Below, in pieces: positions 7,561 through 26,236 of a stretch of 26,236 nucleotides of DNA (the first letter of the stretch is position 1; each line of letters begins with the position of its first letter). The position numbers and the translations under genes were made by a program. The DNA is from Candidatus Aenigmatarchaeota archaeon (GTDB lineage Archaea; Aenigmatarchaeota; Aenigmatarchaeia; Aenigmatarchaeales; SZUA-1535): positions 1 through 26,236 of the forward strand of contig WAOA01000018.1 of the NCBI GenBank assembly GCA_015521535.1, in the 5' to 3' direction. The notes beneath the pieces are model-generated. The model did not search any database and was not told where the DNA came from. It saw only the letters and a list, made by a program, of their open reading frames with translations.

Positions 7561-7582
7561 CCTCTTAATCCCTGTATTGTGT

Positions 7583-9274: not shown

Positions 9275-9330
9275 TAACGTTCCGAAAGACTGTTTTTCTA
9301 ATTCTAGAATTTCTTAAAAAAATTTATTAA

Positions 9331-10986
9331 ATGGTTCTGCTCAAAAATATAAGTGTGAAAAAAAGAAATCTGCTTTGGATTATAGGTATAGTAGGAATAG
9401 TTATTAGTATAGCGTATGCTCAGAACATTAGCGTTAAAGCAGGGTATATTACAAAAGCGAATCTTTATTCTGAAATCTCTACATGGAGATGGGGGGGGAT
9501 AATAGGGTATGTAACCCCAGGTACGCTTCCCGAATCTCCGGATCCTTTTCTTCAGCATAGTATAACAGCGGGAGTAATAGATATGATAAACGTCTCGGCA
9601 TCAAATCTCAAAGACGGCAAACACTATTTTGCCGCACTACCTTATGACACCGCTCTCACTATAAATGTGAGTAAGATGCGGAATATTACAGAGAATGATT
9701 TAGAAGAATTCGGAATTTTCAACGCCACCAATTTTCCGATATTTCATCCGAACTATTATCAGAACAGCGATAACCCGAAAACCACTTTTTGTTGTTATAA
9801 TGAAACGATTCTGATTTCTGGCAAGCCCTTTACGGCTTTCAGGATAGTGCTTAAAAATAATGTGAGATACTATCTCTTGAAATACCAGTTTAACGACTCT
9901 TATGCTCTTCCTCTTTTCCTTGTAAATATCTCCGATTATACATGCTACGACTCCACTACATGTCAGTTCGAATTCATGCTTCCTGCAGATAAAACTTATC
10001 AACTGTATGTGCTTTCGAAAGAGCCGGCGTATGACATAAAAGTTTTCGTAGATGGGGTGGAAACTACTGATATACCGAATACGGGATTACCTTATAATAT
10101 TACTACGGTAGTGTACGATATATATACACAAATACCTGTACCTAACAAGACTATTGTAGTATTCGAAGATAACGGTAATAATATATTTTCACCTTTACCG
10201 ATTATTTCGACCACATCAAGAGTTATGGCTTATACCGAATCCGACTCTAAAGGCAGGGTACAGTTTATAATATCTCCTACACCTACATTTCAAGAAGCAG
10301 GAATTTATTCATTAAAAGTAGGTATCTTGAGCACTAAAGATATAATCACAAATCAAAAAACGCTAAACATTCTGGATATGGAACTTAAAGGCGGTAAAAA
10401 ATATATATCGCCTACAGAACTTTTGGACAATTCGAAAGCCACGGTAGTTTACATGATACAGTTAGAGGATAGTGTGTATAACTGGGCTCAGCAGAGAAAG
10501 GCTAACAAGTATACAATTTTTGTCGACACTTCCGGAAGTTACACTATAAGAAATGAGTCGGACGGATTATATTATTCATCAGCATCCATACAAACAGGCG
10601 CAGTGAATTATATCAGCGTAATACTTCGCTCCGGCGGGGTGGATGTTCCGGGATATGTTGTACCAGAAGAAACAGCAGGATTTATAGTAATGAATCCCAC
10701 TTATAATCCGCCTGTCGTCGGTCCTAAAAACCACACCCATAAAGTTTTTTATATCCCGACAGGTACAGGATTTGTTATAGCGCCTACAAAAATGGGTCCT
10801 GCAAACAGCGAGGTAAAGTTATATGTGTATGATTCAAATTATTATCTCGTTGCCACGATACCTTTATACATAGATAAATCCACAACTATTACAGGCAATG
10901 CTGTATTTTACCAAAACGATGACATGCAGGCAAAGATAGTAAAAACCATACAGGTGATAAACACTCTGTACTACGCCTATTGGTGA
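9331..10986 (+). CDS. Secreted protein: N-terminal domain A (homologous to 18211) plus domain B (homologous to the C-terminus of 10991); putative adaptor/base subunit
   Basis: Signal peptide to AYA|Q; SVKAGYITKANLYSEISTWRWGGIIG aligns with TVQAGYIRLANVSTEMSTYHWAGIYG; no TM anchor. ORF is confident, function is inferred. Confidence 0.6.
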   Translation: MVLLKNISVKKRNLLWIIGIVGIVISIAYAQNISVKAGYITKANLYSEISTWRWGGIIGYVTPGTLPESPDPFLQHSITAGVIDMINVSASNLKDGKHYFAALPYDTALTINVSKMRNITENDLEEFGIFNATNFPIFHPNYYQNSDNPKTTFCCYNETILISGKPFTAFRIVLKNNVRYYLLKYQFNDSYALPLFLVNISDYTCYDSTTCQFEFMLPADKTYQLYVLSKEPAYDIKVFVDGVETTDIPNTGLPYNITTVVYDIYTQIPVPNKTIVVFEDNGNNIFSPLPIISTTSRVMAYTESDSKGRVQFIISPTPTFQEAGIYSLKVGILSTKDIITNQKTLNILDMELKGGKKYISPTELLDNSKATVVYMIQLEDSVYNWAQQRKANKYTIFVDTSGSYTIRNESDGLYYSSASIQTGAVNYISVILRSGGVDVPGYVVPEETAGFIVMNPTYNPPVVGPKNHTHKVFYIPTGTGFVIAPTKMGPANSEVKLYVYDSNYYLVATIPLYIDKSTTITGNAVFYQNDDMQAKIVKTIQVINTLYYAYW

Positions 10987-10990
10987 TGAA

Positions 10991-12793
10991 ATGAAGAAAG
11001 AGATATATTTAATATATTTCATTGTACTATCTGCGTTTTTAATAACCCCTGTTTTAGGAGTCACGGCAAGCATAAAAGATTCAAGTTTCAATACCGTAAA
11101 TCTTTACTATACCGGCTCTTCTTCTTCTGATCCTGGTCAGTATTATTTTGATGGCGTACCGAGCAAAGGAAATCCTAATGTAGGCATAGAACTTTGCGAT
11201 GCTGGGCAGGCATATGTTGGCGCTGCGTACGCTATAAATGTAGGCGGTAGTTGGCAATACGCTTTAATAACGTACGCCTCATCTTCAGAAGCACTTTCAT
11301 ATACTTCACAATCCGGCTCTGCAGCAGGCTGTTACTTTACACCAATAGATTTCCTTACCTTCAGCCCGTATCTTTACACAACCCCGAATCCGGATGTTTA
11401 CGTTGCTGCTTTTCCCGGAAGGCTTTACGTTGCCTATGAGACAAGCGCTAATCCCGGGACGCTGAGTAATTTTGTGTTTGTCGGAAACAACGGCTATCTT
11501 CGTGGCAGTTATACCGTGCCCAGAAGCTTCGATGAAAGCACATGTACAATAAGCATCTCTGAACCCACAATTTCCTTTCAGTATTACGGCGGTAGTTTTT
11601 CTGCCGGAGCGAGCGACTCCAATGTAGGAATTTCTAATGAGAGAAGAATGGTAATAGGTGTTTGTACAGACGATCAAGGAAGTGCCTGCAATGACGGAAC
11701 AGTTCTAAGCTCTGCTACATTTCCTTTGACACTCGGTACAGGGCTCACGGGCTCGCCGTGTGTTAATGATCAAGCCACACCTATAGATAGATATGTGGTG
11801 ATAAACGGTCTCGGAAACTATATCTGCATAGGCCCCAACCTTAAAGTTTCGATAACACAACTTTCTCCGAATCCTGTGTATTATAACCAGACTCTGACCA
11901 TAAGTTACAGAATCACAAACCCGAGAGATACGCCTTACGAGACGCAGGGAGGGAATGTAAGGGTCACGACGGATTTTACGGTTAGAGTTTCGATTTTCAA
12001 CGCTTCAAATCCCTCGCAGATCGTGTATGAAAATGTAGAAACCATAACGGATGACATTCCTGTCAACGGTGCTGTTGACAGAACTCTCTACTGGCGCGCC
12101 GCTGTACACAGCGGAACGTATACGGTAAAAGTAGAAGTTGATTACGGCTCTGCAATAGGAGAGTGTAACGAAGGTGATAATTCAGCACAACAGAATTTCG
12201 AAGTTAAACCTGTTGTAATTCCGGAAATATGGATAAACGGAAATAAAACAGATACCTTTCCCTATCCCGGCAGACCTTACAACTTCTCGCTCTATCTGAG
12301 AAATTCCGACAACGAAACCTTGAGAAACGCTTATGTAAAAATTGTGGAAAAGAACGGACTCTCGCTTTTCACACCCACGCAGATATGGGATAAGATTCAC
12401 GACCAATACGGAAACAAAACAAAAAATGCAACAATAGTTACTTCTATAACAGAAGTTTACACAGATTATTACGGATGGGTTAATATTACTTTAATTCCCA
12501 CCGGCAATAGATTATTCGCTCCTGAATATGCCTATACAAACGCTTCGCAGGTACTCGGAAACTATTCTTTATACCTTACAGGAAGATATCTCAAAGGTAA
12601 TATATGGGAAGATTTCAAATTCGTTATAAACGATCAACTTCTTGACAACTACCCTCTCAACATCCAAAATCCGTATACATACAAAGGTTACGATAAAGAA
12701 ATCGCATTCCATAATCAGAAAAACTTTGTCGAGGTAGTTATGGATTTCGTTTACACAGTATTCGCAAATTTCTGGAAAGCGATTGTAAAGTGA
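10991..12793 (+). CDS. Secreted protein: domain C + CARDB + domain B; putative adaptor
   Basis: Signal peptide; CARDB-like PNLKVSITQLSPNPVYYNQTLTISYRITN...YTVKVEVDYGSAIGECNEGDN; SD GGTGA; N- and C-terminal domains shared with 12800 and 9331 respectively. Confidence 0.6.
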   Translation: MKKEIYLIYFIVLSAFLITPVLGVTASIKDSSFNTVNLYYTGSSSSDPGQYYFDGVPSKGNPNVGIELCDAGQAYVGAAYAINVGGSWQYALITYASSSEALSYTSQSGSAAGCYFTPIDFLTFSPYLYTTPNPDVYVAAFPGRLYVAYETSANPGTLSNFVFVGNNGYLRGSYTVPRSFDESTCTISISEPTISFQYYGGSFSAGASDSNVGISNERRMVIGVCTDDQGSACNDGTVLSSATFPLTLGTGLTGSPCVNDQATPIDRYVVINGLGNYICIGPNLKVSITQLSPNPVYYNQTLTISYRITNPRDTPYETQGGNVRVTTDFTVRVSIFNASNPSQIVYENVETITDDIPVNGAVDRTLYWRAAVHSGTYTVKVEVDYGSAIGECNEGDNSAQQNFEVKPVVIPEIWINGNKTDTFPYPGRPYNFSLYLRNSDNETLRNAYVKIVEKNGLSLFTPTQIWDKIHDQYGNKTKNATIVTSITEVYTDYYGWVNITLIPTGNRLFAPEYAYTNASQVLGNYSLYLTGRYLKGNIWEDFKFVINDQLLDNYPLNIQNPYTYKGYDKEIAFHNQKNFVEVVMDFVYTVFANFWKAIVK

Positions 12794-12799
12794 TGGGAA

Positions 12800-15121
12800 A
12801 TGAAAAAATATATTTTAATGGCTGGAATAATGCTACTTGTAATAAATGTCTCCGTAGCCATGACGGTAAATCTTACGGACTATTACGGCAATGCCACATC
12901 GCTTTTATACGATTACGATAACGTTACGCAATACACTTCATGGTCGTATAAAGATTCTTCTTTAAGAAATCCGAATGTGTTTATGAGGCTGTGTAATCTT
13001 ACAAACGATTTCTACAACGTTTTTCTTGACTTAAGATATGCTACAGAATCAGGAAACCTTTCGGAATCATTGCTTTCTCTTCTACCTCTCGTCAATCTCA
13101 CGAATCTTTCCTCTTCATGTAAGTTTATAGATATAGATATCTCTAGCTTCAAAGCCCTTTATCCAGCATATCCGTTTTTCTATCTTCTGAATTCTTCAGC
13201 GAATTCAAGCGTTATCGCGAAATTTAAACTTTCAGAAAGTTTCAACGGCTCCTACAAGGTGGGAATAGATGTAGATAATGTGGATAAAATTACCTATATT
13301 ACTATAACCGAAATATACGATGATAGGGGAAGATTGATCAATACTTCGTATCCAAAACTTTACATTACAATTTTAAAAAACAATACTCCTGTTGCTGAAG
13401 GAAAAACTGCTCCCAGATCGCCTTTGCCGTTCAATTACACTTTTGTTGATGAAGAAGAAATATATGTAAACGGAATTCTTTCGCTGAAAGTAAAAACCTT
13501 CGAGCCGTGCGGAGTTATAAACGAATCCGGGTATTATATCCTGAACGCTTCTGCATGGAATGTTAACGATACCTGTATAGTAATAGAAAATATTTCAAAT
13601 ACGTTTCTTAATTTTGCAAATCTCACCATTGATGGTGATTACAGCGTAAACGGCTCTTTGCGTGAAGATGTCTGCGGCATACTGATAAGAAATTCGGAAA
13701 ACGTTTCTATCTATGATATGCGCGTCGAACATTTCGGAAGAGGTGTATGCGTAAAAAATTCTCGTGGAGTAAAAATTTACGGAACACATGCAAGCGAGAA
13801 TCTTAAAGGCATTTATCTTGAAAACTCCTCAGTGGAAATTTCAAATATAAAGTTGAACACGGTTAAAGAAGAAATCTTTGCAACCAAGAATTCCTATGTA
13901 AAGGTTAATCGGGTGGAACTTCCAGAAGAAACCAAAGTTTCTTTTGAAGCATCTGACATAGCGCTACGAGACGTTCCTGATCCGCCTCCCGATAGAGAAG
14001 GTTACAAAAACATAAAACAATTCGCTAATATCAGCAAAACCGAAGGCGATGCATGGGTTTATAAAATAACATTTCACTATACGTATCCGCTGCCTAACAA
14101 TGTCACGCATGTAGTTTACATCACAAAAGTAGACGGAATATATCTTAACGGAACATGGGCAAATCTTACATATCAAGATTTTCAAGCAAATAAACAGGAT
14201 TTTTCGGATAAAACCGGAAAAATTACTCACGGTTATGCATGGATAGAAGAAAATTTCACGGATTTCTCTATTTTCATACCTTACGGTTTGAACATAACGG
14301 CTCCGCAACCGGTTCCGCAGCCTCAACCGAGGCCGACTCCAACACCATCTCGGATAATAGGCAAGGTTGAAGAAATAGTACCGCCGAATCTTAATTTAAC
14401 CTTACATACATATGAAATAACAATCCAACAGGGAGAAATTAAAGAAATAGGTTTTAATCTATCAAATGAAGGAGATGTAGATGTATACAATGCCGTGGTT
14501 CTCGCTTTGGTTAGAAAGGGCTGGCTAACCGCAGGTGTAAATTTCGATGTGGTTAGAGCAGGAGAAACGAAAATAAGTAAGTTTTACCTTAAAGTATATG
14601 AAAATGAGATTCCGGGAGTATATTATATACCTGTAAAGGCTATACTCAAAGAAAACAATGTTACGGTAGATGTTGAGATATTAAAAGTAAGGGTTGTACC
14701 GAGACAGAGGATTGCTAAAATAGATATTCTGGAAATTCTCCCGTATCTTTCTTTACCCGAGCATTCCAAGGTACCCATCTCGGTTTTGGTAGAAAACACA
14801 GGAGATTATGATCTCCAAAATATTAGACTTTCTATAGAAGGTGCGGAAAAATGTATAGAAAAAATCGAAGGTAAGTATGATCTCAAAAGAGGTGAAAAGA
14901 AAAGTTTGACGTTTATCGTTTATACGAAAAATGCAGGGAATAAATGCACAGGTGTATACGTCTTCAGATCAAAAGAAGGAATAGTCGGAATGTATCCGGT
15001 AATAATAAAGATAAGACCGAAGACGCTGGTAGAGATAATAAAAATATTCCCGATAATATACATTATATGGACGCTCTTCACGATATATATAATTTACAGG
15101 AGGTTGAAAAAACGTGGCTGA
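12800..15121 (+). CDS. Membrane-anchored surface protein: domain C, right-handed beta-helix (NosD/pectin-lyase-like), PGF-pre-PGF-like domain, Pro-rich linker, two NEW3/CARDB-like domains, C-terminal TM
   Basis: PCGVINESGYYILN...GILIRNSENVSIYD..VEHFGRGVCVKNS; APQPVPQPQPRPTPTPS; FNLSNEGDVD and VLVENTGDYDL; TM IFPIIYIIWTLFTIYII plus RRLKKRG. Confidence 0.7.
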   Translation: MKKYILMAGIMLLVINVSVAMTVNLTDYYGNATSLLYDYDNVTQYTSWSYKDSSLRNPNVFMRLCNLTNDFYNVFLDLRYATESGNLSESLLSLLPLVNLTNLSSSCKFIDIDISSFKALYPAYPFFYLLNSSANSSVIAKFKLSESFNGSYKVGIDVDNVDKITYITITEIYDDRGRLINTSYPKLYITILKNNTPVAEGKTAPRSPLPFNYTFVDEEEIYVNGILSLKVKTFEPCGVINESGYYILNASAWNVNDTCIVIENISNTFLNFANLTIDGDYSVNGSLREDVCGILIRNSENVSIYDMRVEHFGRGVCVKNSRGVKIYGTHASENLKGIYLENSSVEISNIKLNTVKEEIFATKNSYVKVNRVELPEETKVSFEASDIALRDVPDPPPDREGYKNIKQFANISKTEGDAWVYKITFHYTYPLPNNVTHVVYITKVDGIYLNGTWANLTYQDFQANKQDFSDKTGKITHGYAWIEENFTDFSIFIPYGLNITAPQPVPQPQPRPTPTPSRIIGKVEEIVPPNLNLTLHTYEITIQQGEIKEIGFNLSNEGDVDVYNAVVLALVRKGWLTAGVNFDVVRAGETKISKFYLKVYENEIPGVYYIPVKAILKENNVTVDVEILKVRVVPRQRIAKIDILEILPYLSLPEHSKVPISVLVENTGDYDLQNIRLSIEGAEKCIEKIEGKYDLKRGEKKSLTFIVYTKNAGNKCTGVYVFRSKEGIVGMYPVIIKIRPKTLVEIIKIFPIIYIIWTLFTIYIIYRRLKKRG
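14300..14350 (+). repeat. Pro/Gln/Thr low-complexity linker (in-frame)
   Basis: Encodes APQPVPQPQPRPTPTPS; imperfect CCG-CAA/CAG/ACT codon repeats. Confidence 0.7.
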
Positions 15122-15368
15122 AAAAGATGAGAAAAAAGAAGAGGAATTTGATTTTATTACACCGTATCTTGAAAAAATAGGTCTGGAAGAAAAGAAAGAG
15201 AAAAAAAAGCACGAGGAACGTCATCTGGAAATTCACGGTGGAGAAATAGTAAATGATATTATAGAACTCGCAAAGAAGGAAAGAAAAATAACTCTTACGC
15301 TTGGGATAGAAATAGTTTTAACGGTTATATTAATACTTATGCTCCTAGGAGTGATTCCGTTTTTCTGA
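15114..15368 (+). CDS. Small tail-anchored membrane protein, hypothetical
   Basis: GTG start overlapping the upstream stop with SD GGAGGT; charged N-terminus and a single C-terminal TM; no signal peptide. Confidence 0.62.
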   Translation: MAEKDEKKEEEFDFITPYLEKIGLEEKKEKKKHEERHLEIHGGEIVNDIIELAKKERKITLTLGIEIVLTVILILMLLGVIPFF

Positions 15369-15575
15369 CCAAAACTGAAAATATATTTAGACCGTTCGGA
15401 TAAAAGCCCACCTCCTTAAAAATATACATCTGCACATAAGGAAAGTACATCCTGTCGTGATAAGAACTGGGAAGAGGGTTGAAAATGAATCGCCTATATA
15501 GATTTTTCTGTGCGCGATAATCGCCGCATGCATGAACTTTCGCCCGCTCGCAATATCTTTTATCTCAATTCTTGA

Positions 15576-16031
15576 TTATCCGGATGTTCCCATTTTTCTG
15601 AGCATGGTTATTATATTTTTCTTTATTTTTTCCTTTCTCCTCGGAGGAATCGGTTTGGAAGAATATTCTATGTAAATCATATTTTCCAGGAATTCTATAA
15701 CATCTTCCTTTTCATCTTCCGGAATGCTATCTAACTCTTCTATTCTTTTTTTCATCTCCATGTAAGTCGTAACACCCTTAATGTTGTATTTCCTTTTAAG
15801 AAATTCAAAAATCCTGTCTCCCAAATCGATGAGCTTTTTTCTCATGGTTTCAGAAGATGAAGCATCAAGAATTTTATCCAGCGTTAAATCAAATGAAATT
15901 TTGTTTAATACCGCTCTAAGTTTTTTAATCTCGTTTTCTGTTTCTTCGAACCTTTTTTTAAAATAATAAAACTGAAAACCTGCTATACCGAGCGCTAAAA
16001 CCAATACAACAACTAAAGCGAGTTCTATCAT
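15576..16031 (-). CDS. Single-pass membrane protein with coiled coil and helical cytoplasmic domain, hypothetical
   Basis: N-terminal TM, FEETENEIKKLRAVL coiled coil, then TTYMEM...FLENMIYIEYS, loosely reminiscent of DUF4129-type domains found near MoxR/DUF58 loci (weak). Confidence 0.62.
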   Translation of the reverse strand: MIELALVVVLVLALGIAGFQFYYFKKRFEETENEIKKLRAVLNKISFDLTLDKILDASSSETMRKKLIDLGDRIFEFLKRKYNIKGVTTYMEMKKRIEELDSIPEDEKEDVIEFLENMIYIEYSSKPIPPRRKEKIKKNIITMLRKMGTSG

Positions 16032-16063
16032 GGTTTATTTTTTGACAAAAGGAGATTATAAAT

Positions 16064-17770
16064 TTATCTCTTGTAGCGATATCTGTAATGTTTCGGCTTT
16101 CTTTTAGAGAGTATGAATAGTATCACTATACCTATACCTACAATCACAGGAATTATTAATATCATCGGAATTCCAGAAGCAACTTCTACCGGAAGCGTTA
16201 CCACGGCTGATTTTACAACAGCATCTTTCCTTTCTCCGTAATCCGCTTCTATTTTTATCTTAGAATTTTCCTGAATATCTATTTCATCAAGTTCGGCAGG
16301 AATATATATTTCCTTTACTTCTCCCGGTTTAAGTTCTACAATACCCGAACTCAAAGAATCAGTAATGCCTTTAATTTTAACATCGAGGAGTTTTATTATA
16401 ACAACCGCCTTAACATCGCCTATATTTTTAACCTTAATACCGAATCTTTTAGAGCCCTTATAGTATTTCGCTTCGAGAATCTCTATCTTCGATCGATCCT
16501 TTATTTCAGAGATTTTTAATGGTAGTGAAAACGGCGGGCCAAACTTGCCTGCCTGCGTTAGATACGAATCAAGGTTTTTCGGAGATTCACCGTATGAGGT
16601 ATAGAACTCTACTGTTATATTTCCTGTCAACTCGGTAAGAAAAACATCGTAACTTCGCCATACGCTTTCACCCGCTCCTATGAAAACCGCTTCGCTATCT
16701 CCGCCACTCGCAATTTCTTGACCGTTTTTCAGAACTCTGAAAGTGGTGAACTCGTACACCCCTGTTTGCCCTTCATTCGAAAACTGGATCATTAACTTTT
16801 TGTTTTCAGGATCGTAAACCGCTGAAAGTATGTTTAATTTTAATTCGAGCTTCGGGAGGGGAAACATAGAAAGAGCGTAAATCTGACCGCTTATTCCAGG
16901 TGTGGATTGACCGAATTTTATGAACACGGATACTTTTTTGTTGGTCTTTTCTCTTATTCTTTCTCCGACATAAGTGAGTTGCGGGCCTATTGCTATTACC
17001 GTTTTTATTCCGTTCGAGTTTATAAAATCGAGAACTTCGTCAGGAAGTAGATTTGTTCCCACAAGAAGAACGGGAGAAGCGCCTTTAAGAATTTCAAGTT
17101 CTATATAATTTCCTTCCGTGATAATCGCCTGTGAAGTTTTTTTCACTTTAAGGAACTCTTCACCCAGTTTAGCGCTTATTTCAAATTTTGAGTTTCCTGT
17201 TATTCTTTTATCGAAGTACTGGGAAATTGTATTTTCTATGGATCTTTTGAAATTACCTATTCCTACTACTTTCTGAGCGTTTGCAAGCATACTTGCTATG
17301 TCGTTTGCATTGTTATCGTTAACTATTAAGACCCATGCTCTGTTTGCCATTGCAAGCGCTCCTGCAGGAAGAGAGAGATAGGGAAAATCTTCTTCCACAA
17401 CGTAATAAGAATTTGCTTCTTCCGGCTTGAGGTCTCTGTAAGAATTCGTTACGGTGATTTTTTGTACTATATTATAACCGCGCAATCTTATCTGGCTTTC
17501 GAGATTCGGAATGTATCTGTCGCCGGATTCTATAAGAATTACGGGCTGCTTAGGAAGAACGTTAAAAAGTCCTGCAGGATTAGGAGAATTCGCGAAATAC
17601 ACAGGATAGTTGTTGTAATTCGCGTAAAGCACGCCGTAATAAACATCTTTCCAGTCCTTGGAATTTATCACAACAACTTCTCCGTGAACAACAGGGAGAA
17701 GCATAAAAAAGACTCCGATAGAAACTACAAGGTATCGGTATGAATTTCTCGTGCCTAGTTTCGTCATCAC
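16064..17770 (-). CDS. Membrane-anchored surface protein with three CWB2-like repeats and two Ig-like domains; paralog of 7583-9274
   Basis: NSKDWKDVYYGVLYA, DFPYLSLPAGALAMANRAWVLIV, KRITGNSKFEISAKLGEEF, PVLLVGTNLLPDEVLDFINSNGIKTVIAIGP; C-terminal TM plus KRKPK. TATA TTTATAAA at 17800-17793. Confidence 0.68.
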   Translation of the reverse strand: MMTKLGTRNSYRYLVVSIGVFFMLLPVVHGEVVVINSKDWKDVYYGVLYANYNNYPVYFANSPNPAGLFNVLPKQPVILIESGDRYIPNLESQIRLRGYNIVQKITVTNSYRDLKPEEANSYYVVEEDFPYLSLPAGALAMANRAWVLIVNDNNANDIASMLANAQKVVGIGNFKRSIENTISQYFDKRITGNSKFEISAKLGEEFLKVKKTSQAIITEGNYIELEILKGASPVLLVGTNLLPDEVLDFINSNGIKTVIAIGPQLTYVGERIREKTNKKVSVFIKFGQSTPGISGQIYALSMFPLPKLELKLNILSAVYDPENKKLMIQFSNEGQTGVYEFTTFRVLKNGQEIASGGDSEAVFIGAGESVWRSYDVFLTELTGNITVEFYTSYGESPKNLDSYLTQAGKFGPPFSLPLKISEIKDRSKIEILEAKYYKGSKRFGIKVKNIGDVKAVVIIKLLDVKIKGITDSLSSGIVELKPGEVKEIYIPAELDEIDIQENSKIKIEADYGERKDAVVKSAVVTLPVEVASGIPMILIIPVIVGIGIVILFILSKRKPKHYRYRYKR

Positions 17771-17818
17771 AATTTATTTGTTATAAGATATATTTATAAA
17801 TTACTCTATATAACGATA

Positions 17819-18166
17819 ATTAAATACTCTAACAATGTAAAAGTTTCGCGAAAATTACAAAAATTACGAGAACTATGCTGAGAAAGGTTATTTCATGGTT
17901 AATTGTTTTTATATCGTGATTTCGCGCTTATTATAACGTATTTATTGATCAATTCAATCAATATCATAGTTTATCATAAGTTTATGATCTTTTTATTTAA
18001 TCGAATAAAGCACAAAGAAAACTGATTTCGCGATTAATCATTTTAAATTATCTTTTTACTATTATCATAAGAATTTCATTATAAATCTGGAATTAAAAAT
18101 TTATTATAGAAAAGGGAGAATTTTTAATAAAAATTTCATTCTCGAGAAACCGATTAAATACTCTAA
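17819..18166. repeat. 14-bp direct repeat ATTAAATACTCTAA (17819-17832 and 18153-18166)
   Basis: Two exact copies, each just upstream of one of the two divergent TATA boxes; a degenerate third copy near 17796-17809. Confidence 0.55.
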
Positions 18167-18178
18167 AGTATAGATAAT

Positions 18179-18186
18179 TTTATATA
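18179..18186 (+). promoter_or_regulatory. TATA box (TTTATATA) of the major secreted subunit gene
   Basis: Consensus TATA 25 nt upstream of ATG 18211, implying a leaderless mRNA. Confidence 0.55.
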
Positions 18187-18210
18187 TCGGTTCTTATAAA
18201 AAATTAAACC

Positions 18211-18918
18211 ATGAAAGACGCATTTTTGAAGATTTGGGTAGCAATAACATCGTTTCTAGTAGCGGCAGTTCCGATAGCAATGGCAGCAACTCCGGGGCCT
18301 GCAGAAGTAACAGATATAGCGCAAAAAGGACCGTACTCATATACACCCACAACTCCGTCAACAACAGTCCAAGCAGGTTATATCAGATTAGCGAATGTCT
18401 CTACTGAGATGTCAACATATCACTGGGCAGGTATCTACGGTAATGCATCAGGTACGCTTGTATTGGGAGATGCTTCAGGTAGTAAAATGTATACCTGGAC
18501 GGCGACAGCAACTTATGTTTTCTTCGATGACGATAATACAATAAACTGGGGTACGATTGATAACGCCACATGTACAGATATAGGAACCAGTTTCAGTTTT
18601 ATAGCAGATTCCACGGGCGCTAGCGATAGTTGTTCTAATACATTTACCAATTCAGGTCCTACAAACTTCAAGTCAATAGGAAATGTGTTGAGCACGGCTT
18701 ACGCATTAACATACGACAACACCCAAACTCCAACTTGGAAGACATATGCCGTAAAAGATACCACACAGGGAGATGTATTCTTTGCAGCAGAAACAATTAC
18801 CACACCGGGAACTGCTTTTGATGGTTCACCCGCAAACTATCAAGCAATACTACCAGAAAACGGCGAGAATGCAGATACAACAACCCAGACATACTATATA
18901 TGGATAGAACTATTCTAA
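18211..18918 (+). CDS. Secreted 235-aa Thr-rich stand-alone domain A protein; candidate major structural subunit (filament or lattice)
   Basis: Sec-type signal MKDAFLKIWVAITSFLVAAVPIAMA; QAGYIRLANV, WAGIYGN.SGTLVLGD.SG..MY.W, AFDG...YQAILP, YYIWIELF; monocistronic with own promoter and terminator; ACA/GCA-biased codons unlike its neighbours. Confidence 0.7.
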   Translation: MKDAFLKIWVAITSFLVAAVPIAMAATPGPAEVTDIAQKGPYSYTPTTPSTTVQAGYIRLANVSTEMSTYHWAGIYGNASGTLVLGDASGSKMYTWTATATYVFFDDDNTINWGTIDNATCTDIGTSFSFIADSTGASDSCSNTFTNSGPTNFKSIGNVLSTAYALTYDNTQTPTWKTYAVKDTTQGDVFFAAETITTPGTAFDGSPANYQAILPENGENADTTTQTYYIWIELF

Positions 18919-18920
18919 AA

Positions 18921-18955
18921 CTTCTTGTCTTCTTTTTCTTCTTTTTTATAATTTT
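18921..18955 (+). terminator. Pyrimidine/oligo-T archaeal terminator
   Basis: CTTCTTGTCTTCTTTTTCTTCTTTTTTATAATTTT immediately after the stop at 18918. Confidence 0.65.
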
Positions 18956-18956
18956 A

Positions 18957-19101
18957 CGGGTCGTGTCCGGATAACCGCGAATTACGCGATAGAGCACATG
19001 TACTCGGCGAGACCCGGGAAATATCGAAGTATTTCCGTGTAAAAGTTCATGTTCTATAGTTAATTCTTTTGTGAATCGCGAGAAACGCTTATCCGGACCC
19101 G
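18957..19101. other. Nested imperfect hairpin of about 145 nt; candidate structured RNA or cis element
   Basis: GTCCGGATAA (18965-74) pairs with TTATCCGGAC (19089-98); CGCGAATTAC with GTGAATCGCG; ATAGA..ACATG with CATGTTCTAT; inner GGAAATAT-CGAA-GTATTTCC. Confidence 0.45.
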
Positions 19102-19196
19102 GTAGATATTATAACGGTGTTAGAGAACTTCGTAAAGAAATTGCTCGAATTCTGTGAAAAAACAGGAATAGATCCGTAACAAAGTTGGGTATTACT

Positions 19197-20189
19197 CTAA
19201 ACAGCCCCGAATTTCGAGAATAACAGCAACTCAAGTGCTATTAAAATCGAGATGAACAGAAGCACGTAATAGTCAGAGTTCAGCGGTATTCTTTCATTCT
19301 TCACAACTATGTTTTTCATGGATTCCTCAAAAGCGGTTTCATTAGTCACAAAGAAGAATTTTCCACCCGTTTCCTGAGAAATTTTCCGCAAATTTCTATC
19401 ATCCAATTTAGGGAACGAGAATTTAATTCCTTTCTTCTTCGCAACTTTCTCCAGTTCGCTAATCAACTCTCTCGTTTCATTTGTCACACCTATGCCTATT
19501 GTATAGATAACTATTTTTTTATCTCTGGCCTCTTTAAGCGCGAGAGTAAGGTTTCTTCCTGCATTATTTTCGCCGTCCGTAATTATAATTAAAAACCTCT
19601 GCTTATCGGAATCCGCAAGAACGCTCGCTCCCGCGAAAATCGCTTCTCCTATGGCGGTACCGCTACTATTACTTTCAACTTTCAGCGATAAAATTTTGTT
19701 TTTTATTTCAAACGTATTCAGAGTTAAGGAAGTTAACGGAGCAGCCCTTTCGGAAAATTTTATCACACATAGCTTGGAAGCCCCAGGCAAAGAGTCCATC
19801 CAGTCCAGAATAGTTTGTTTAGCAAACTCTATTCTGTTTGGCTCGTAATCAGGAAGAAGCATTGTCTGAGAAACATCTACCGCTATGCAGAAATCTGTGT
19901 TTGCAACTGGTTTTACAAGACTAACCTGTATTGATTCTGTTGCAACGAGAAAAAGCAGGGTTACCGTAATTAACTTTACCGCAAGCAGCCAGGGACTCGG
20001 CACTATGGATTTGTATCCGTGAACTTTTTTAAGCGTATGAAAATTCGCGAATTTTAAAATTCTATTCTTTCTCATTTTCGTCATTAAGATATAGGAAATT
20101 GTAACTATTGCTAACAGCAGCAATAGCATTCCTATGCTTCTCCAGGGAAGCATAATCACAACCTTTATTCCTAAAAATTCTATTTCCAT
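19197..20189 (-). CDS. Membrane-anchored von Willebrand factor A protein, BatA-like
   Basis: Two N-terminal TMs with ILKFANFHTL between them; MIDAS-like AVDVSQTM, GTAIGEAI, IITDGENN, IYTIGIG, ISQETGGKFF; C-terminal TM. Confidence 0.9.
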   Translation of the reverse strand: MEIEFLGIKVVIMLPWRSIGMLLLLLAIVTISYILMTKMRKNRILKFANFHTLKKVHGYKSIVPSPWLLAVKLITVTLLFLVATESIQVSLVKPVANTDFCIAVDVSQTMLLPDYEPNRIEFAKQTILDWMDSLPGASKLCVIKFSERAAPLTSLTLNTFEIKNKILSLKVESNSSGTAIGEAIFAGASVLADSDKQRFLIIITDGENNAGRNLTLALKEARDKKIVIYTIGIGVTNETRELISELEKVAKKKGIKFSFPKLDDRNLRKISQETGGKFFFVTNETAFEESMKNIVVKNERIPLNSDYYVLLFISILIALELLLFSKFGAV

Positions 20190-21076
20190 ATCCTTTCACC
20201 GAAAAGATTTACTATCATTTTAACCATATTCTTTTCCGTAGTATAGACCTTTGCGAAAAGCGCTCCCGCTTGTGTGAATTTATTCTTTATCTCCTCTTCT
20301 TCTCTCCTTGCGTTTTCGTTGAATTCATCTCTTATCTTATCGGCATCAACAAGATTTATTTCTCCTGTAGCAGGGTCCTGAATGTAAATCTTGCCAACAC
20401 CTTCCGGAATGTAACTGTCGAAAGGATCTCTTATCATAATTCCGGCCACTCCTTCAAATTTGTTTGAAGCTTTCAAAACAAAGTCGTAAAGTTCCTCTTT
20501 CGGGCCTATGAAGTCGGAGAGAATGAAAACAAAAGAATCGGGTCCAAAAGTTTCGAGAACGGCGGGAGTAATTATACCCCATCTTTTTTCCCCGCCGTAA
20601 ATATTTTTATCCGTTAAAACTTTTGCTATTTGGAGGACCGTATCTATGCTTACCGAAGGGTCTATAAACACTTTTATCTCGTCGGAAAACCCGATCATGC
20701 ACACTCTATCTCCAAGAGTATGCGAAACAAGAGCAAGGGTTGTGGCTAGAATTGAAGCATATTCGTTTTTCACGAGTTCGGTTGTGCCAAGCGTCATGGT
20801 TGTGGAAAGGTCTACTATATAAATTATATCCAACTTTCTCTCTTCCTTGAAAACCTTAACATGCGGCTTTCCTGTTCTTGCATAGGAGTTCCAGTCGATA
20901 AACCTGGCATCGTCCGCTTCCGTATATTCTCGCAACCTATCAAATTCAATACCTCTTGAAGTAATCACCTTATAATAAATGAACTGAAATTTCAGAAGTT
21001 CCACCAGTTTCCACACGTTTATAATACTTCTCTTCCATAAATCGTTAAATTCTAAAGTTGAGACGTTTACCTTCAC
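20180..21076 (-). CDS. DUF58 family protein (MoxR-associated, vWA-like)
   Basis: GIEFDRLREYTEADDARFIDWNSYART...VKVFKEER, VDLSTTM, LSDF; GTGA start/stop overlap with moxR. Confidence 0.9.
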   Translation of the reverse strand: MKVNVSTLEFNDLWKRSIINVWKLVELLKFQFIYYKVITSRGIEFDRLREYTEADDARFIDWNSYARTGKPHVKVFKEERKLDIIYIVDLSTTMTLGTTELVKNEYASILATTLALVSHTLGDRVCMIGFSDEIKVFIDPSVSIDTVLQIAKVLTDKNIYGGEKRWGIITPAVLETFGPDSFVFILSDFIGPKEELYDFVLKASNKFEGVAGIMIRDPFDSYIPEGVGKIYIQDPATGEINLVDADKIRDEFNENARREEEEIKNKFTQAGALFAKVYTTEKNMVKMIVNLFGERIWK

Positions 21077-22083
21077 GGAACTTCTACCCCTTCGAGAATC
21101 TCGTCTATAATTTCATCCGTGCTTATGCCGGCTGCTTTACCTTCATAGTTAAGGATTATTCTATGTCTTAGTACAGGATGCGCTACAAGTTTTACATCGC
21201 CTGGGGTAACAAAATCCCTTCCATCCATCAGAGCCACGGCTCTTGCCGCTAAAGCAAGAGAAATACTACCTCTCGGAGAGGCACCGTATCTTATATATTT
21301 CGAATATTTTATTTTCTCGTCTTTCGTTCGTGTAGCGGTGATTATCCTTAAAATGTACTCTTTCACCGGCCTTGAAACGTAAATTTTTCTAACATCTCTT
21401 TGAATGTTAAGAATCGTTTCTCTGTCCATCACGGATTTTACCGGATCGAAAATATTATATCTTACAAGTGTATTCCTATCTATAATCTCTAATTCCTCAT
21501 CCCATTTCGGATAATCGACAAGAATTTTCATGAAAAATCTATCAACTACCGCCTCTGGCAGCGGATAAACACCCTGCTGCTCCAAAGGATTCTGCGTGGC
21601 AAGCACAAGAAAGGGCTTCTCCAATATAAACTCTTCTTTATGGATGTTAACCTTCCTTTCCTGCATCGCTTCCATCATCGCTGCCTGCGTTTTCGGAGGC
21701 GCTCTGTTTATCTCGTCTGCCAGTATAAAATTAGCGAAGATAGGGCCCTTTATGATATAGAAATCGCCTTTTACGGGATTGAAAGCATTAACTCCTATAA
21801 TATCCGAAGGAAGCATATCCGGTACGAACTGTATTCTTCTGAAAGTTGTTCCTACTATGCATCTTGAAAGCGTTTCGACGAGTAAGGATTTAGCTAGTCC
21901 CGGTACGCCTTCCAAAAGCGCGTGAGCATCGCAAATCAAACAGATTAGCACGTGCTCTATTACCTCATTCTGACCCACAACAACTTTTTGAATTTCTTTT
22001 TTCATTTTTTTGAGAATATTCTGATAGTTTTTTATGGTCTTTTCAGGAAGGCTGCTTTCCTTTCCAGGAAGATATCTTTTCAT
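21073..22083 (-). CDS. moxR: MoxR family AAA+ ATPase
   Basis: LLEGVPGLAKS, RIQFVPDMLPSDIIG, LADEINRAPPKTQAAMMEAMQER, ATQNPLEQQGVYPLPEAVVDRF, GASPRGS. Confidence 0.95.
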   Translation of the reverse strand: MKRYLPGKESSLPEKTIKNYQNILKKMKKEIQKVVVGQNEVIEHVLICLICDAHALLEGVPGLAKSLLVETLSRCIVGTTFRRIQFVPDMLPSDIIGVNAFNPVKGDFYIIKGPIFANFILADEINRAPPKTQAAMMEAMQERKVNIHKEEFILEKPFLVLATQNPLEQQGVYPLPEAVVDRFFMKILVDYPKWDEELEIIDRNTLVRYNIFDPVKSVMDRETILNIQRDVRKIYVSRPVKEYILRIITATRTKDEKIKYSKYIRYGASPRGSISLALAARAVALMDGRDFVTPGDVKLVAHPVLRHRIILNYEGKAAGISTDEIIDEILEGVEVP

Positions 22084-22742: not shown

Positions 22743-25700
22743 TTATTTAACTTCCATGAAGATTTTTATCAAATCGTTTGTTCCTTTAAGATCTCTTAAT
22801 AATGCAGGAATTCTTGCTTCGTAATCATATGTTCCGTAAGTTCCCTGAGCGTCGGAATTAATTTTTGTGATGAATATCAAATCCTGTGTACCATTATACT
22901 CTGTTCCTCCGTCACCGGAATCCCATAAAATACCTGTGATGAAATTACCGTTATTACTGTCTGTTGAATTTATCACGGGGACATCGCAAACCGTACGCGA
23001 GCCTATTTCAAAGCACGCTGTAGTATCTGCTACACCATCGTTGTTTTTATCGTAAAGCGCTTCTACCGAATCACTGAATCCTGTCATGTTAAGGGCCTGA
23101 TCAGCCTCGGTAAAATCATTTGTGCCGTTAAGCGGCATTAAATCAGCGAAAGCGTAATCCGAGTCGTAATCAGCAAAGTATAAATTACCTTGCTGCGTCA
23201 TCGGAATCCATACACTAAAGTTATTTCCTGCACTGTCTTTTATAGCTATCCATCCGTTTGTATGTCCGTAATAAATCGCCCATCCGCTCACATTGTAAGT
23301 AGTGCTGTTAAAGTTATTACTTTCATTCGTTTCGGATATCGTGTTTGCGGGATCTACAGTAACAGAGAAATTCCATGTTCCAGGTTTTGCAATCCATGTA
23401 AAGTTCACGAGTTCATAGGTGTTTGCAGTTATGTTAACCACGCTCTCGTTTGTTTGCTTAAGTATCCATACGGTTCCGTTAAAGCTGTAAATATCGAGTT
23501 GTACTGTTACATTTGTGGCATCTACACCGGCTTCTTCAGAGACATTTGCCGTAATCATCAGTACTTGATTTTCTACAATATTTTCCTGTGAAATATTGAA
23601 CATTATATTGTTCGCAACTAAATCAGGTTGCGTGCTCGCTCCAGTGAATGCTTCAAAACTCGTGACGTTAAACCAGATATGCGTGGCATTTTCTCCGTAA
23701 CCTTCAAGATTTGCAGGATCTATGAACTCCCATTGCGAACAATTTGCATTAACAAAGTCCCATGCTATGCAGTGGAGCACATTCTGAACGGTTACACCGT
23801 TTTTCGGAATAACAAGTTTTGCCTTTTCAAAAGCCAAACCTGTATCGTTTAGCGCGTATATTGGAGTGATAGCAGAAACGTTGCTCGGTAAAAAGCCCGC
23901 ATAGTTTTCAACGACCTGCTCTTCTATTTTTAAGTTCATTTTAGAAATATTTAGATTATAAATTCTTGATCCCAATCCGTCACTTACAGGCGTAAAACTC
24001 TTATAGGTATAATTTTCGTAAATTTCTAAAGATGCCGTAATGCTTCCGTATCCGCTTGCCACAAGATTATTATTTTTATCGTAAATTTCTATCCGTGTAT
24101 TAGGATTCACGTGATAACTTGAATTGTATGAATTTACAACTATAGGCGTGGAGATATTCCAGGTAATGTTTATATTATATACTTCAGGTCCGTTCAGTGC
24201 TGTTTTGGTAAACAAACCTATTTTCACGTATATGGAATCCGAAGTAATTCCGGAGAGATCACAGTTCGAAGGTGAAGATGTACAGTTAACGAGGAATACA
24301 TTATTCCAGTTATAAACTTCATAGGTGATATTTCCGTTATTAAGTATATGATCCGCGGAGAATTTTTCCCATTTACCGAGTTTAAGCGGTTTAATGAGAA
24401 TTGTTTTTACCCACGCATTATGCTTTCTGCTTTCTTCAACTTCTTCGAAAACTTTATCCACATAACCCTGTTTTCTTATTTCAGCCGAGAGATTCGTTCT
24501 AAAGTAGTAATAAAATCCGCAGGTCGCAGGGTCAGCGTTAACCTTACTGTTAACCTGCGGAGTTACCGTAAATGAAGTTTTTCCTCTGATATCTTGGCTA
24601 ACATCCTTTGGCCATGTGCTTATATGGGTTAGTGTACACCCGTCTATTCCAGGCGAGTAAACCCCGTAACACGAACCTTCTACCGTGACGTTAAATCTCT
24701 CGTATGTTTCTCCTGCAGCACAGGTAGTATTATCTGCATACGAACCGCCAAAGCCGAGATCGCCCGCTGCTTCTAAGTCGACACTACCTGAGTAAAACTC
24801 GTATCCGGCAGGTGCGTTGAACGCCATCGGACAACTACCGCCTGTAGTAGAGCCGGAACATGTCTGGCTCGCGGAATAAGAATCGAAAACACTACTTGAG
24901 TTGCTTTCGCTTTCCACAAGCATGTTTCCGTAATACATGTAAACCGTTGTATTGCCTGCGCTTATTTCAGGCAGTCTTATCCAGATTTTTGTTTGTGTGG
25001 TATTACAATTACCTTCTAAGTAGTACGGAATCTCTTTTTCTTCACCGTTAGTCATATTTATCCATGTAAATCTAATATCTTTACACGTAGAATTCATTTT
25101 ACTCGCGGATATTAAATTCTGTGTATCGACAGTAAGATTAACCTGGAAATCGGTTAGTGTTTGAGAATTGTTTATTATCATGGGTTTTCTGTAAAGATAA
25201 CATTTTCCTTCGATATACCAACAGAAATCTATACTTAATTTATTACTAACACTAGCATTTTCACTCTGATTTATTCCGGATTTTGTTGCAAAATAATCTT
25301 GCCATAGCGTTGCGTTTACAGTAAAACTTATGCTGCTCCATCCTATCCTTCCCGCGGTGTCATTGGCATAAACATAAAGTTCATTTGTTCCTGGCTTTGC
25401 TGCTATGCTTGTGTTTGGTGTGAACGTTTCATTCGCCTTACCGTTTATCGAGAACCACCATGTATCAATTGGTTTATTCGAAACAACTTCCAAAGGTATG
25501 TAGTTTGTAGTGCTATAAGTCTTTGATTGAGGTGAGAGTATATCTATGACAGGAGCCGTAGTAGATATTCTCACACTTCTTAATCCACTCGCGCTCCAAT
25601 GGTTATAGGAATCGTTAGCATATACGCGATAATAGTAAGTTCCGTCATTTAAGTCTGTCACATTAAACCAGAAACTTCTCGATGTTAATGTGTTCATAGT

Positions 25701-26236
25701 GTAGTTTACTACCGTGCCATTAGTATAATTCCATTCAAGAAAAGCAATACTTGTGTCTTCATTTGTTGTAATATTAACATAAGTCCAGTTGTAGTCGAGA
25801 GCCTGGTTATCATCAGGTGTAGGTGAAACGAATGTTATTACCGGTCCTTGGGTATCTATTGTAAATAATACACCGGAAGAATTGACATTGTTTCCAGTAT
25901 CGTTAGCGTAAATAACCAGAGAATGCGTTCCGTCAACAAGATTTACGAGCGTGAAGTTTTCGCAGTTTGTAAGATACACATTTTCTCCGCCATCGAGTTT
26001 ATACCAGCATGTATCCACACCTAAATTATCTGTGACTGTGTAATTAACATTTATCGTATTTGTTAGATATGTAGCACCATCCTCTGGCGAAACTATAGTT
26101 ATCACCGGCGCCTGCGTATCAACGGTAAAGAATTGCTCCGCATAGCCTACATTTCCCGCGCTGTCGTTAGCGTAAACCCTAACCTTGTGGGAACCATCGC
26201 TAAGCGATGTCAAAGTTGTGTTTTCGCAGTTCGGTA
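22743..26236 (-). CDS. Giant surface adhesin-like protein, 5'-truncated by the window edge: at least 4 Ig-like repeats, DUF2341, Cys-rich insert, PGF-pre-PGF-like, CARDB, C-terminal domain A
   Basis: The frame stays open to the window end (PNCENTTLTSLSDG, so the TTG at 26213 is not a true start); YAND..G..DT..PVI repeats; CKDIRF...IPYYLE...KIWIRLP...YMYYGN; PDLVANNI...VDPANTISETNESNN; no TM anchor. Confidence 0.8.
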   Translation of the reverse strand, partial: PNCENTTLTSLSDGSHKVRVYANDSAGNVGYAEQFFTVDTQAPVITIVSPEDGATYLTNTINVNYTVTDNLGVDTCWYKLDGGENVYLTNCENFTLVNLVDGTHSLVIYANDTGNNVNSSGVLFTIDTQGPVITFVSPTPDDNQALDYNWTYVNITTNEDTSIAFLEWNYTNGTVVNYTMNTLTSRSFWFNVTDLNDGTYYYRVYANDSYNHWSASGLRSVRISTTAPVIDILSPQSKTYSTTNYIPLEVVSNKPIDTWWFSINGKANETFTPNTSIAAKPGTNELYVYANDTAGRIGWSSISFTVNATLWQDYFATKSGINQSENASVSNKLSIDFCWYIEGKCYLYRKPMIINNSQTLTDFQVNLTVDTQNLISASKMNSTCKDIRFTWINMTNGEEKEIPYYLEGNCNTTQTKIWIRLPEISAGNTTVYMYYGNMLVESESNSSSVFDSYSASQTCSGSTTGGSCPMAFNAPAGYEFYSGSVDLEAAGDLGFGGSYADNTTCAAGETYERFNVTVEGSCYGVYSPGIDGCTLTHISTWPKDVSQDIRGKTSFTVTPQVNSKVNADPATCGFYYYFRTNLSAEIRKQGYVDKVFEEVEESRKHNAWVKTILIKPLKLGKWEKFSADHILNNGNITYEVYNWNNVFLVNCTSSPSNCDLSGITSDSIYVKIGLFTKTALNGPEVYNINITWNISTPIVVNSYNSSYHVNPNTRIEIYDKNNNLVASGYGSITASLEIYENYTYKSFTPVSDGLGSRIYNLNISKMNLKIEEQVVENYAGFLPSNVSAITPIYALNDTGLAFEKAKLVIPKNGVTVQNVLHCIAWDFVNANCSQWEFIDPANLEGYGENATHIWFNVTSFEAFTGASTQPDLVANNIMFNISQENIVENQVLMITANVSEEAGVDATNVTVQLDIYSFNGTVWILKQTNESVVNITANTYELVNFTWIAKPGTWNFSVTVDPANTISETNESNNFNSTTYNVSGWAIYYGHTNGWIAIKDSAGNNFSVWIPMTQQGNLYFADYDSDYAFADLMPLNGTNDFTEADQALNMTGFSDSVEALYDKNNDGVADTTACFEIGSRTVCDVPVINSTDSNNGNFITGILWDSGDGGTEYNGTQDLIFITKINSDAQGTYGTYDYEARIPALLRDLKGTNDLIKIFMEVK

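Follow-up and report, generated by a model that had tools for sequence, protein, structure and literature searches.

A giant DPANN surface protein ends in a strand-less homologue of small secreted A-domain proteins, a candidate docking end for a donated strand

The 26,236-nucleotide contig WAOA01000018.1 of a Candidatus Aenigmatarchaeota archaeon (assembly GCA_015521535.1), analysed here over its full length and referred to as the window, encodes a giant surface protein (P0001) that ends in a CARDB domain followed by a second beta-rich domain, termed here the A domain. We found that this C-terminal A domain is a homologue of the core of a small secreted protein encoded in the same window (P0002, the product of the gene at 18211), and that across its family it systematically lacks a segment that the small proteins carry at their mature N-terminus. 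Our preferred reading, to which we give a probability of about one half, is that the CARDB-A pair is a docking end into which a strand-bearing A protein donates a strand. The pair would serve as a shared docking module at the C-terminus of Sec-exported surface proteins, whatever their size, in this case an adhesin-like protein of 6806 amino acids (aa), and the proteins docked in this way would have no membrane anchor except an N-terminal signal or hydrophobic segment. The extra segment at the mature N-terminus of the 18211-type proteins, or of those resembling a second window protein encoded at 9331 (P0003), would be donated in trans to the giant's A domain and would lie against its first three strands and its last strand, at the junction with CARDB. 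Such a joint would be of the donor-strand-complementation type and would tie the giant to a stalk, a polymer or a membrane-anchored partner of strand-bearing A proteins.

The window is an entire contig of a 0.42-Mb metagenome-assembled genome (MAG) that is 70% complete, and its closest public relatives, labelled Nanoarchaeota and other DPANN archaea, come from hydrothermal-vent metagenomes. The end of the contig truncates the giant gene, and the full length of the protein was taken from a 53.8-kb ENA contig with the same locus. Positions 22746–23288 on the minus strand correspond to P0001 residues 983–1163, within which the A domain proper starts from W985 (23282). The features on which the analysis is based are as follows, with immunoglobulin abbreviated to Ig.

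22743–26234, minus strand: open frame of the giant surface protein P0001, with 1163 residues in the window; the gene exceeds the contig end.
22743–22745, minus strand: stop codon of P0001, from the reading frame.
22746–23282, minus strand: C-terminal A domain of the giant (P0001 985–1163, 179 residues), beta-rich and without the AG-x-I..AN segment; putative strand-acceptor or docking domain.
23283–23639, minus strand: CARDB domain of the giant (PF07705), fused directly to the A domain; its last strand, F975–V982, leads into W985.
23640–26234, minus strand: remaining part of the giant protein in the window, with Ig-like Big_13/Big_7 repeats and DUF2341 in Pfam.
18211–18918, plus strand: P0002, a 235-aa secreted stand-alone A-domain protein with a Sec signal, a Pro/Thr linker, the conserved N-terminal strand segment and the A core (alignments A1 and A5).
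18352–18420, plus strand: N-terminal segment of P0002, residues 48–70, including V53–S64 (VQAGYIRLANVS); candidate donated strand according to the predicted interface and to conservation.
9331–10986, plus strand: P0003, a 551-aa secreted protein with an N-terminal A domain and the motif SVKAGYITKANL (9430–9465) directly after the signal peptide; second possible strand donor.

The relationship between the giant's C-terminal domain and the small proteins was evaluated with profiles of the 14-member P0002 family (A1) and of 61 C-terminal A domains (A2), and with deeper profiles of the C-terminal type (A4) and of the small type (A5). A protein was assigned to the A-domain family by profile similarity over the full core, from W..YG through the last strand ..E-L/I. 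Comparison of A2 with A1 by hhalign gave a probability of 96.5% (E = 9.9e-10), and comparison of A4 with A5 gave 99.0% (E = 3.6e-18) over 178 columns, with the similarity extending across the whole core. The 18211 gene was matched directly by the A2 hidden Markov model (HMM; E = 1.9e-6), and the HMM of the small proteins matched 41 of 150 C-terminal-domain proteins among those listed. Pairwise BLASTP of the giant A domain against the 18211 and 9331 proteins was too weak to serve as proof, with one 33-aa patch against the former (E = 0.004), and the homology therefore rests on the profile comparisons. An earlier note on this DNA, made from the letters of the window alone, had aligned the A domains through their length by seven motif pairs, all of which proved to be aligned columns in the profile-profile comparisons. 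It had also described a strand motif shared by the 18211 and 9331 proteins, which was recovered by BLASTP between P0002 and P0003 with 52% identity over 33 aa (E = 4e-6). In a Pfam scan, no family was found for the A domain of the giant, for P0002 or for P0003. The preceding CARDB domain was recognised both by sequence, at P0001 870–976 with 26.3 bits for a gathering cut-off of 22.7, and by fold, with a Z score of 14.8 and a root-mean-square deviation of 1.8 Å to 3idu_A over model residues 3–120 in VIA-align.

Using HMMER on 1.84 billion representatives, we obtained 680 cluster representatives of the C-terminal A type, in proteins of 130–6971 aa and always at the extreme C-terminus. Absence of the motif was judged on the 150 listed of these 680, none of which carried a motif of the AG-x-I..AN type, and the preceding domain was judged on 137 aligned proteins. 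In all 137 the last strand of an Ig-like domain abuts the A domain without a linker, and in at least 109 this domain bears the CARDB signature E-x-N-E-x-N-N. The question posed in the earlier note, whether the A domains of giants elsewhere systematically lack the strand, was thus answered in the affirmative, and its description of the giant held as well: the motif is absent there and the A domain begins, at W985, right after CARDB. We regard it as confirmed by these sequence comparisons that the C-terminal domain of the giant is a true homologue of the P0002 core and belongs to a type systematically without the N-terminal motif. Full-length relatives of the giant carry a single N-terminal signal or hydrophobic segment, beyond which no transmembrane segment is present.

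Proteins carrying the segment were found alongside those lacking it. Small strand-bearing paralogues were present in 41 of the 43 genomes with a C-terminal A-domain protein, each of these 41 encoding 1–14 full-length small proteins of 230–280 aa with a signal peptide, the N-terminal segment and the A core, and the P0002 family was far larger than an initial word-based search had indicated. The related loci (numbered with the prefix L) were gathered with A3, a closer-related set than A2. By HMM, a strand-bearing A gene, often as 2–6 genes in tandem, lay within 10 kb of the giant gene in 22 of 50 loci, where many of the loci without a detected strand-bearing gene stop at a contig edge; the small A genes near giants were mostly immediately downstream on the same strand. 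A 9331-like gene was detected by phmmer in six additional loci (L015, L019, L022, L023, L052 and L053), and full-length P0003 relatives were found just downstream of giant A-domain genes in these six and in L018. In a sample of 201 genomes of the window's own phylum, the C-terminal type occurred in three and the small type in four; because the occurrence of each is essentially confined to the same genus, that of the window, the two families travel together. Both are common in MAGs labelled Woese-, Pace-, Undin-, Aenigmat-, Alti-, Nanohalo- and Micrarchaeota (loci L007–L056), and this patchy distribution, as read from the genomes, suggests lateral spread of the locus.

The segment itself is well conserved. 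Over 64 small proteins from several phyla its consensus is approximately (A/G)-G-N-(I/V)-(T/S)-x-(L/V)-x-(L/I/V), with G56 about 90% conserved and its distance to W72 constant. In the 9331-type proteins and in relatives fused to a HerA-type ATPase the motif likewise stands at the start of the mature protein, which is also where known donor strands lie, and it is strongly conserved in this position in three different architectures.

Two further observations concern the N-terminal region of the small proteins. In most of them an N-x-S/T sequon lies inside the segment (G-N-I/V-T/S), and the sequon of P0002, N-V-S, lies a few residues later (18367–18402); to judge from these sequons, the candidate donated strand may be N-glycosylated. 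An A-x-P-G-G-A-like motif follows the signal peptide (18286–18303), with P28 invariant in A1 and nearly so in A5, and may be a processing site.

The contact between the two proteins was evaluated by structure prediction. In the AlphaFold2 (AF2) monomer model of P0002 the core, residues 70–235, was confident, and residues 19–68 had a predicted local distance difference test score (pLDDT) of less than 50; because of this low score, the model offers no confident cis position for the N-terminal segment. The complex prediction paired CARDB+A with mature P0002, which is a stricter arrangement than the A domain plus peptide proposed in the earlier note, and used unpaired custom alignments. The interaction prediction score from aligned errors (ipSAE) was 0.69, 0.68 and 0.70 in three runs versus 0.00–0.01 in three controls, the mark of a complex on this scale being attained by 58 of 80 solved complexes and by 2 of 110 mismatched pairs. 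On the small side, the confident part of the predicted interface included every residue of P0002 from 48 to 70. On the giant side, it comprised model residues 119–148 and 291–300, corresponding to P0001 982–1011 and 1154–1163, that is, the CARDB-A junction, the first three A strands and the last A strand, together with a few CARDB residues (model 23–26 and 87–88). In this form, the test suggested earlier passed its controls, with residues 48–70 in the predicted interface, and the model supports, at the level of prediction, binding of CARDB-A to mature P0002 via these residues. The partner in the cell would be the 18211 or the 9331 protein.

Several results weigh against a donated strand. CARDB+A alone (P0001 864–1163, with a 56-row alignment) was modelled by AF2 as a rigid two-domain unit with a pLDDT of 94.9 and a predicted template modelling score (pTM) of 0.87; no weak region was seen and the A domain had a pLDDT of about 95. 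By these scores CARDB+A folds confidently by itself, which formally matches an outcome that the earlier note had named as contrary to its proposal. The last CARDB strand, F975–V982, aligns linearly with N62–T69 of P0002 at equal spacing to the conserved Trp, and the CARDB E-x-N-E-x-N-N loop aligns with A55–A61 of P0002 in HMM and profile alignments. Because this strand and loop align there, the linear position of the N-terminal segment is filled by CARDB and not empty, and the last CARDB strand may, on these alignments, replace P0002 residues 62–69 in cis. The substitution by CARDB that had also been named as contrary evidence may hold in part: the strand occupies the linear position of part of the segment, but the complex is still predicted with CARDB present. 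In addition, the alignments of the complex job were unpaired, so that two homologous domains may score by likeness. No RNA runs contain the sequence, only DNA runs from hydrothermal-vent metagenomes. An interface enriched in conserved residues was ruled out, the interface residues of the A domain being less conserved than those elsewhere in the domain (1.87 vs 2.38 bits). The most conserved parts of the C-terminal A domain lie outside the interface (22806–23189, minus strand; P0001 1016–1143) and consist of the acidic motifs GN-x-Y-x-x-D-x-D-S, N-D-F-x-E-A-D, W-D-x-x-D-G-G-x-E-Y-x-G-x-Q-D and Y-D-Y-E. Together with a DKNNDGVAD loop at P0001 1062–1070, these motifs may, judging by their composition, form a calcium or ligand site.

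Much of this would be accommodated if no strand were exchanged at all. The segment would then act in cis, as what remains of, or corresponds to, the final strands of the Ig-like domain that precedes the A domain, and in the giant CARDB would take on this part; the locus would be shared on account of another function, such as calcium-dependent anchoring or ligand binding by the acidic patch, and the predicted complex would be an artefact of likeness. The N-terminal extension and the end of CARDB are linearly equivalent at constant spacing, with a posterior of 6–9 in the HMM alignments, which is consistent with this account, as are the relative P0132, which has a ..VGNI.. Ig-domain end at the same place, the rigid and confident CARDB-A model, and the higher conservation of the acidic motifs (D-x-D-S, N-D-F-x-E-A-D, W-D-x-x-D-G-G-x-E-Y and Y-D-Y-E) relative to the interface. 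It sits poorly, however, with a complex prediction that passed with CARDB in chain 1 and with the strand segment as the core of the interface, with an AF2 monomer that gives the segment no confident place in cis, and with conservation of the motif at the mature N-terminus across the three architectures. We consider it rather unlikely that the segment acts in cis only.

The acidic motifs and the calcium-loop-like DKNNDGVAD sequence would also suit a giant anchored by its N-terminal signal segment, with the C-terminal A domain as its far end binding a host or glycan ligand and with the small A proteins as soluble or coat relatives. That the relatives of the giant have an N-terminal hydrophobic segment only is compatible with such a distal head, and the P0002 model weakly resembles carbohydrate-binding modules (Z of 3.5 or less), but these structural matches fall under any useful threshold. 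A ligand-binding tip is, moreover, unlikely as the sole module that stays invariant, and is always joined to CARDB, on passengers ranging from 300 to 7000 aa, and its strict co-occurrence with strand-bearing paralogues would be unexpected, so that this explanation appears highly improbable.

For the A core, no convincing counterpart was found in the PDB. The P0002 model had no match above Z 3.5 with Foldseek against the PDB or with VIA-align against 48,161 chains, and PDB profile searches with A1 and A5 returned nothing, or E = 1.1 to an unrelated enzyme. VIA-align of the CARDB-A model returned only CARDB and Ig matches, all to residues 3–120. Only unnamed relatives of the family were found in the clusters of the AlphaFold Database, and shape and feature searches of the Atlas gave nothing informative.

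The earlier note had gone further and placed the giant at the tip of a filament. The 18211 protein would polymerise head to tail, each subunit donating its N-terminal strand, and the giant, having a groove and no strand, would form the distal tip, like the adhesins FimH and PapG. This arrangement draws on the same homology, co-occurrence, synteny and complex evidence as a docking end. The tandem arrays of 2–6 small paralogues per locus are reminiscent of major and minor pilins, and the most conserved segments of the small family, namely the strand, the first hairpin and the last strand, are counterparts of the predicted acceptor site. On the other hand, Pfam revealed no chaperone, usher, TasA-type signal peptidase or type IV machinery among 18 of the open reading frames (ORFs) of the window, and neither fold nor sequence linked the A domain to known filament subunits. 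In other lineages a multidomain protein of 550 aa or a membrane ATPase fusion is the strand-bearing neighbour, an arrangement that suits one-to-one docking; docking on an anchored stalk accounts for these 9331-type and HerA-fused neighbours just as well as a filament cap does. A tip cap seems to us unlikely, if by no means far-fetched. Of the interpretation in the earlier note, what stands is the motif-less homologue, the paralogues alongside it across DPANN phyla and the complex prediction; the module that folds alone and the CARDB strand at the position of the segment count against it.

The genes around the giant are conserved as well. The gene set of the window and the fused protein of a related locus are as follows, TM denoting transmembrane.

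7577–22083: conserved surrounding gene set, comprising 7577 and 16064 (signal plus C-terminal TM segment), the secreted 10991, the TM-anchored 12800, 15576, and a MoxR-DUF58-vWA operon at 19197–22083.
L046:11926–16101, plus strand: HerA-fused A protein of 1392 aa, with a signal segment, an external A domain with the donor-type motif, four CarboxypepD_reg domains and a HerA/DUF87-type ATPase.

When the window proteins were compared with the related loci by phmmer, 7577/16064-like proteins were found in 22 loci, 10991-like in 7 and 12800-like in 8, and MoxR, DUF58 and vWA were each found in 5. The whole neighbourhood, including genes for 7577/16064-like anchored proteins, 9331-, 10991-, 12800- and 15576-like genes and the MoxR-DUF58-vWA genes, recurs in the same order next to giant A-domain genes in seven loci of other DPANN MAGs (L015, L018, L019, L022, L023, L052 and L053), and by its gene content looks like a conserved multi-gene surface system. 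In one locus (L005, GCA_027051615.1) the gene for an identical 235-aa protein is followed downstream by a PP2C phosphatase gene where the window has the vWA-DUF58-MoxR operon, a difference that could be a rearrangement or an assembly join. The HerA-fused gene adjoins a giant that itself ends in an A domain (L046:2–10576). Comparable frames of 1300–1400 aa are present in other genomes; the window's own genome, at 70% completeness, yielded no HerA-fused A-domain protein. Pairs of adjacent large genes that each end in a C-terminal A domain are frequent (L016, L029–L031, L033, L036, L037, L040, L041, L043, L049 and L052); because such genes sit side by side, several different passengers appear to share the same type of docking end within a genome.

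If these elements belong together, DPANN archaea from several phyla would share an undescribed, horizontally spread surface-assembly system, in which Sec-exported adhesins of any size plug via CARDB-A onto strand-donating A proteins. The latter would make up a stalk or fibre, held in place by TM partners or, in certain lineages, by a membrane ATPase of the HerA type. Donor-strand assembly would then occur in a new fold and with neither chaperone nor usher, and the system would be a candidate basis for attachment to the host. We advance this wider picture tentatively, as somewhat doubtful when taken as a whole. Giant surface proteins are the usual suspects for the attachment of DPANN archaea to their hosts, and a strand plugged into the end of the giant, as modelled here, could be the way in which DPANN cells mount huge adhesins. 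For the surface retention of giants with no anchor beyond the N-terminal signal segment, CARDB-A provides a directly testable handle, and two experimental objects are now defined, a CARDB-A construct of about 300 aa and a binding peptide or partner. If true, donor-strand-type assembly would extend to a domain family and an organism group that are both new to it. Our literature searches found no description of the A-domain family, of a CARDB-A end with small partners, or of the locus.

Among known systems, the closest in logic are the tip adhesins of chaperone-usher pili. FimH and PapG have two domains; the C-terminal one, which makes the joint, is a homologue of the shaft subunits without their N-terminal extension. 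As in these adhesins, the variable binding part of the giant is N-terminal and its C-terminal joining domain is motif-less (0 of the 150 listed), the small paralogues having the motif, and the N-terminal strand of the next subunit is predicted by the complex model to contact the joining domain. Unlike in FimH and PapG, the A domain is not recognisable as an incomplete Ig pilin fold, with a best PDB Z score of 3.5, and folds confidently without a donated strand; Pfam found no PapD-like chaperone or usher among the 18 window ORFs scanned, which include the whole conserved gene set, and the organism is an archaeon with one membrane.

A second comparison is with the donor-strand filaments of the TasA superfamily, which include TasA, AbpA (7UEG), the Sulfolobus thread subunit (7PNB) and the CanA protein of cannulae (PMC12518558). 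Like the small A proteins, their subunits are Sec-exported beta-sandwiches of about 200–250 aa whose mature N-terminus carries a conserved strand, and no chaperone is required. In cannulae, calcium participates at the interfaces (PMC12518558). The A domain differs from TasA, AbpA, CanA and the thread subunit in that it had no profile or fold match to them or to Peptidase_M73 in Pfam, in PDB profiles or in VIA-align against the 48,161 chains, where no match had a Z score of 5 or more. None of the TasA-type systems in PMC12518558 is described with a giant adhesin that ends in a strand-less copy of the subunit domain.

The Pam pili of candidate phyla radiation (CPR) bacteria are a surface fibre of ultrasmall episymbionts for which donor strand exchange without an outer-membrane usher has been proposed (bioRxiv 10.64898/2026.03.03.709456, PMC13278184), with dedicated tip and terminator subunits in one operon and support from cryo-electron microscopy (PMC13278184). 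Pam is bacterial and has Ig-like pilins and membrane-anchored PapD-like chaperones, whereas the system described here has no such chaperones, belongs to another domain family and is known by prediction. A further likeness is to C-terminal sorting and anchoring domains such as the C-terminal domain of the type IX secretion system, since the A domain also stands at the extreme C-terminus of Sec-exported cargo of 130–6971 aa; no Por_Secre_tail or similar match was found in Pfam, and the likeness is one of logic only. Finally, the SPEARE proteins of Nanohaloarchaeota are giant surface proteins of DPANN archaea (PMC6642349). Like the giant of the window, they are secreted proteins of several thousand residues in a host-dependent nano-archaeon, and they are thought to mediate contact with the host (PMC6642349). 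The C-terminal A domain is itself also present in Nanohaloarchaeota MAGs (L027 and L028).

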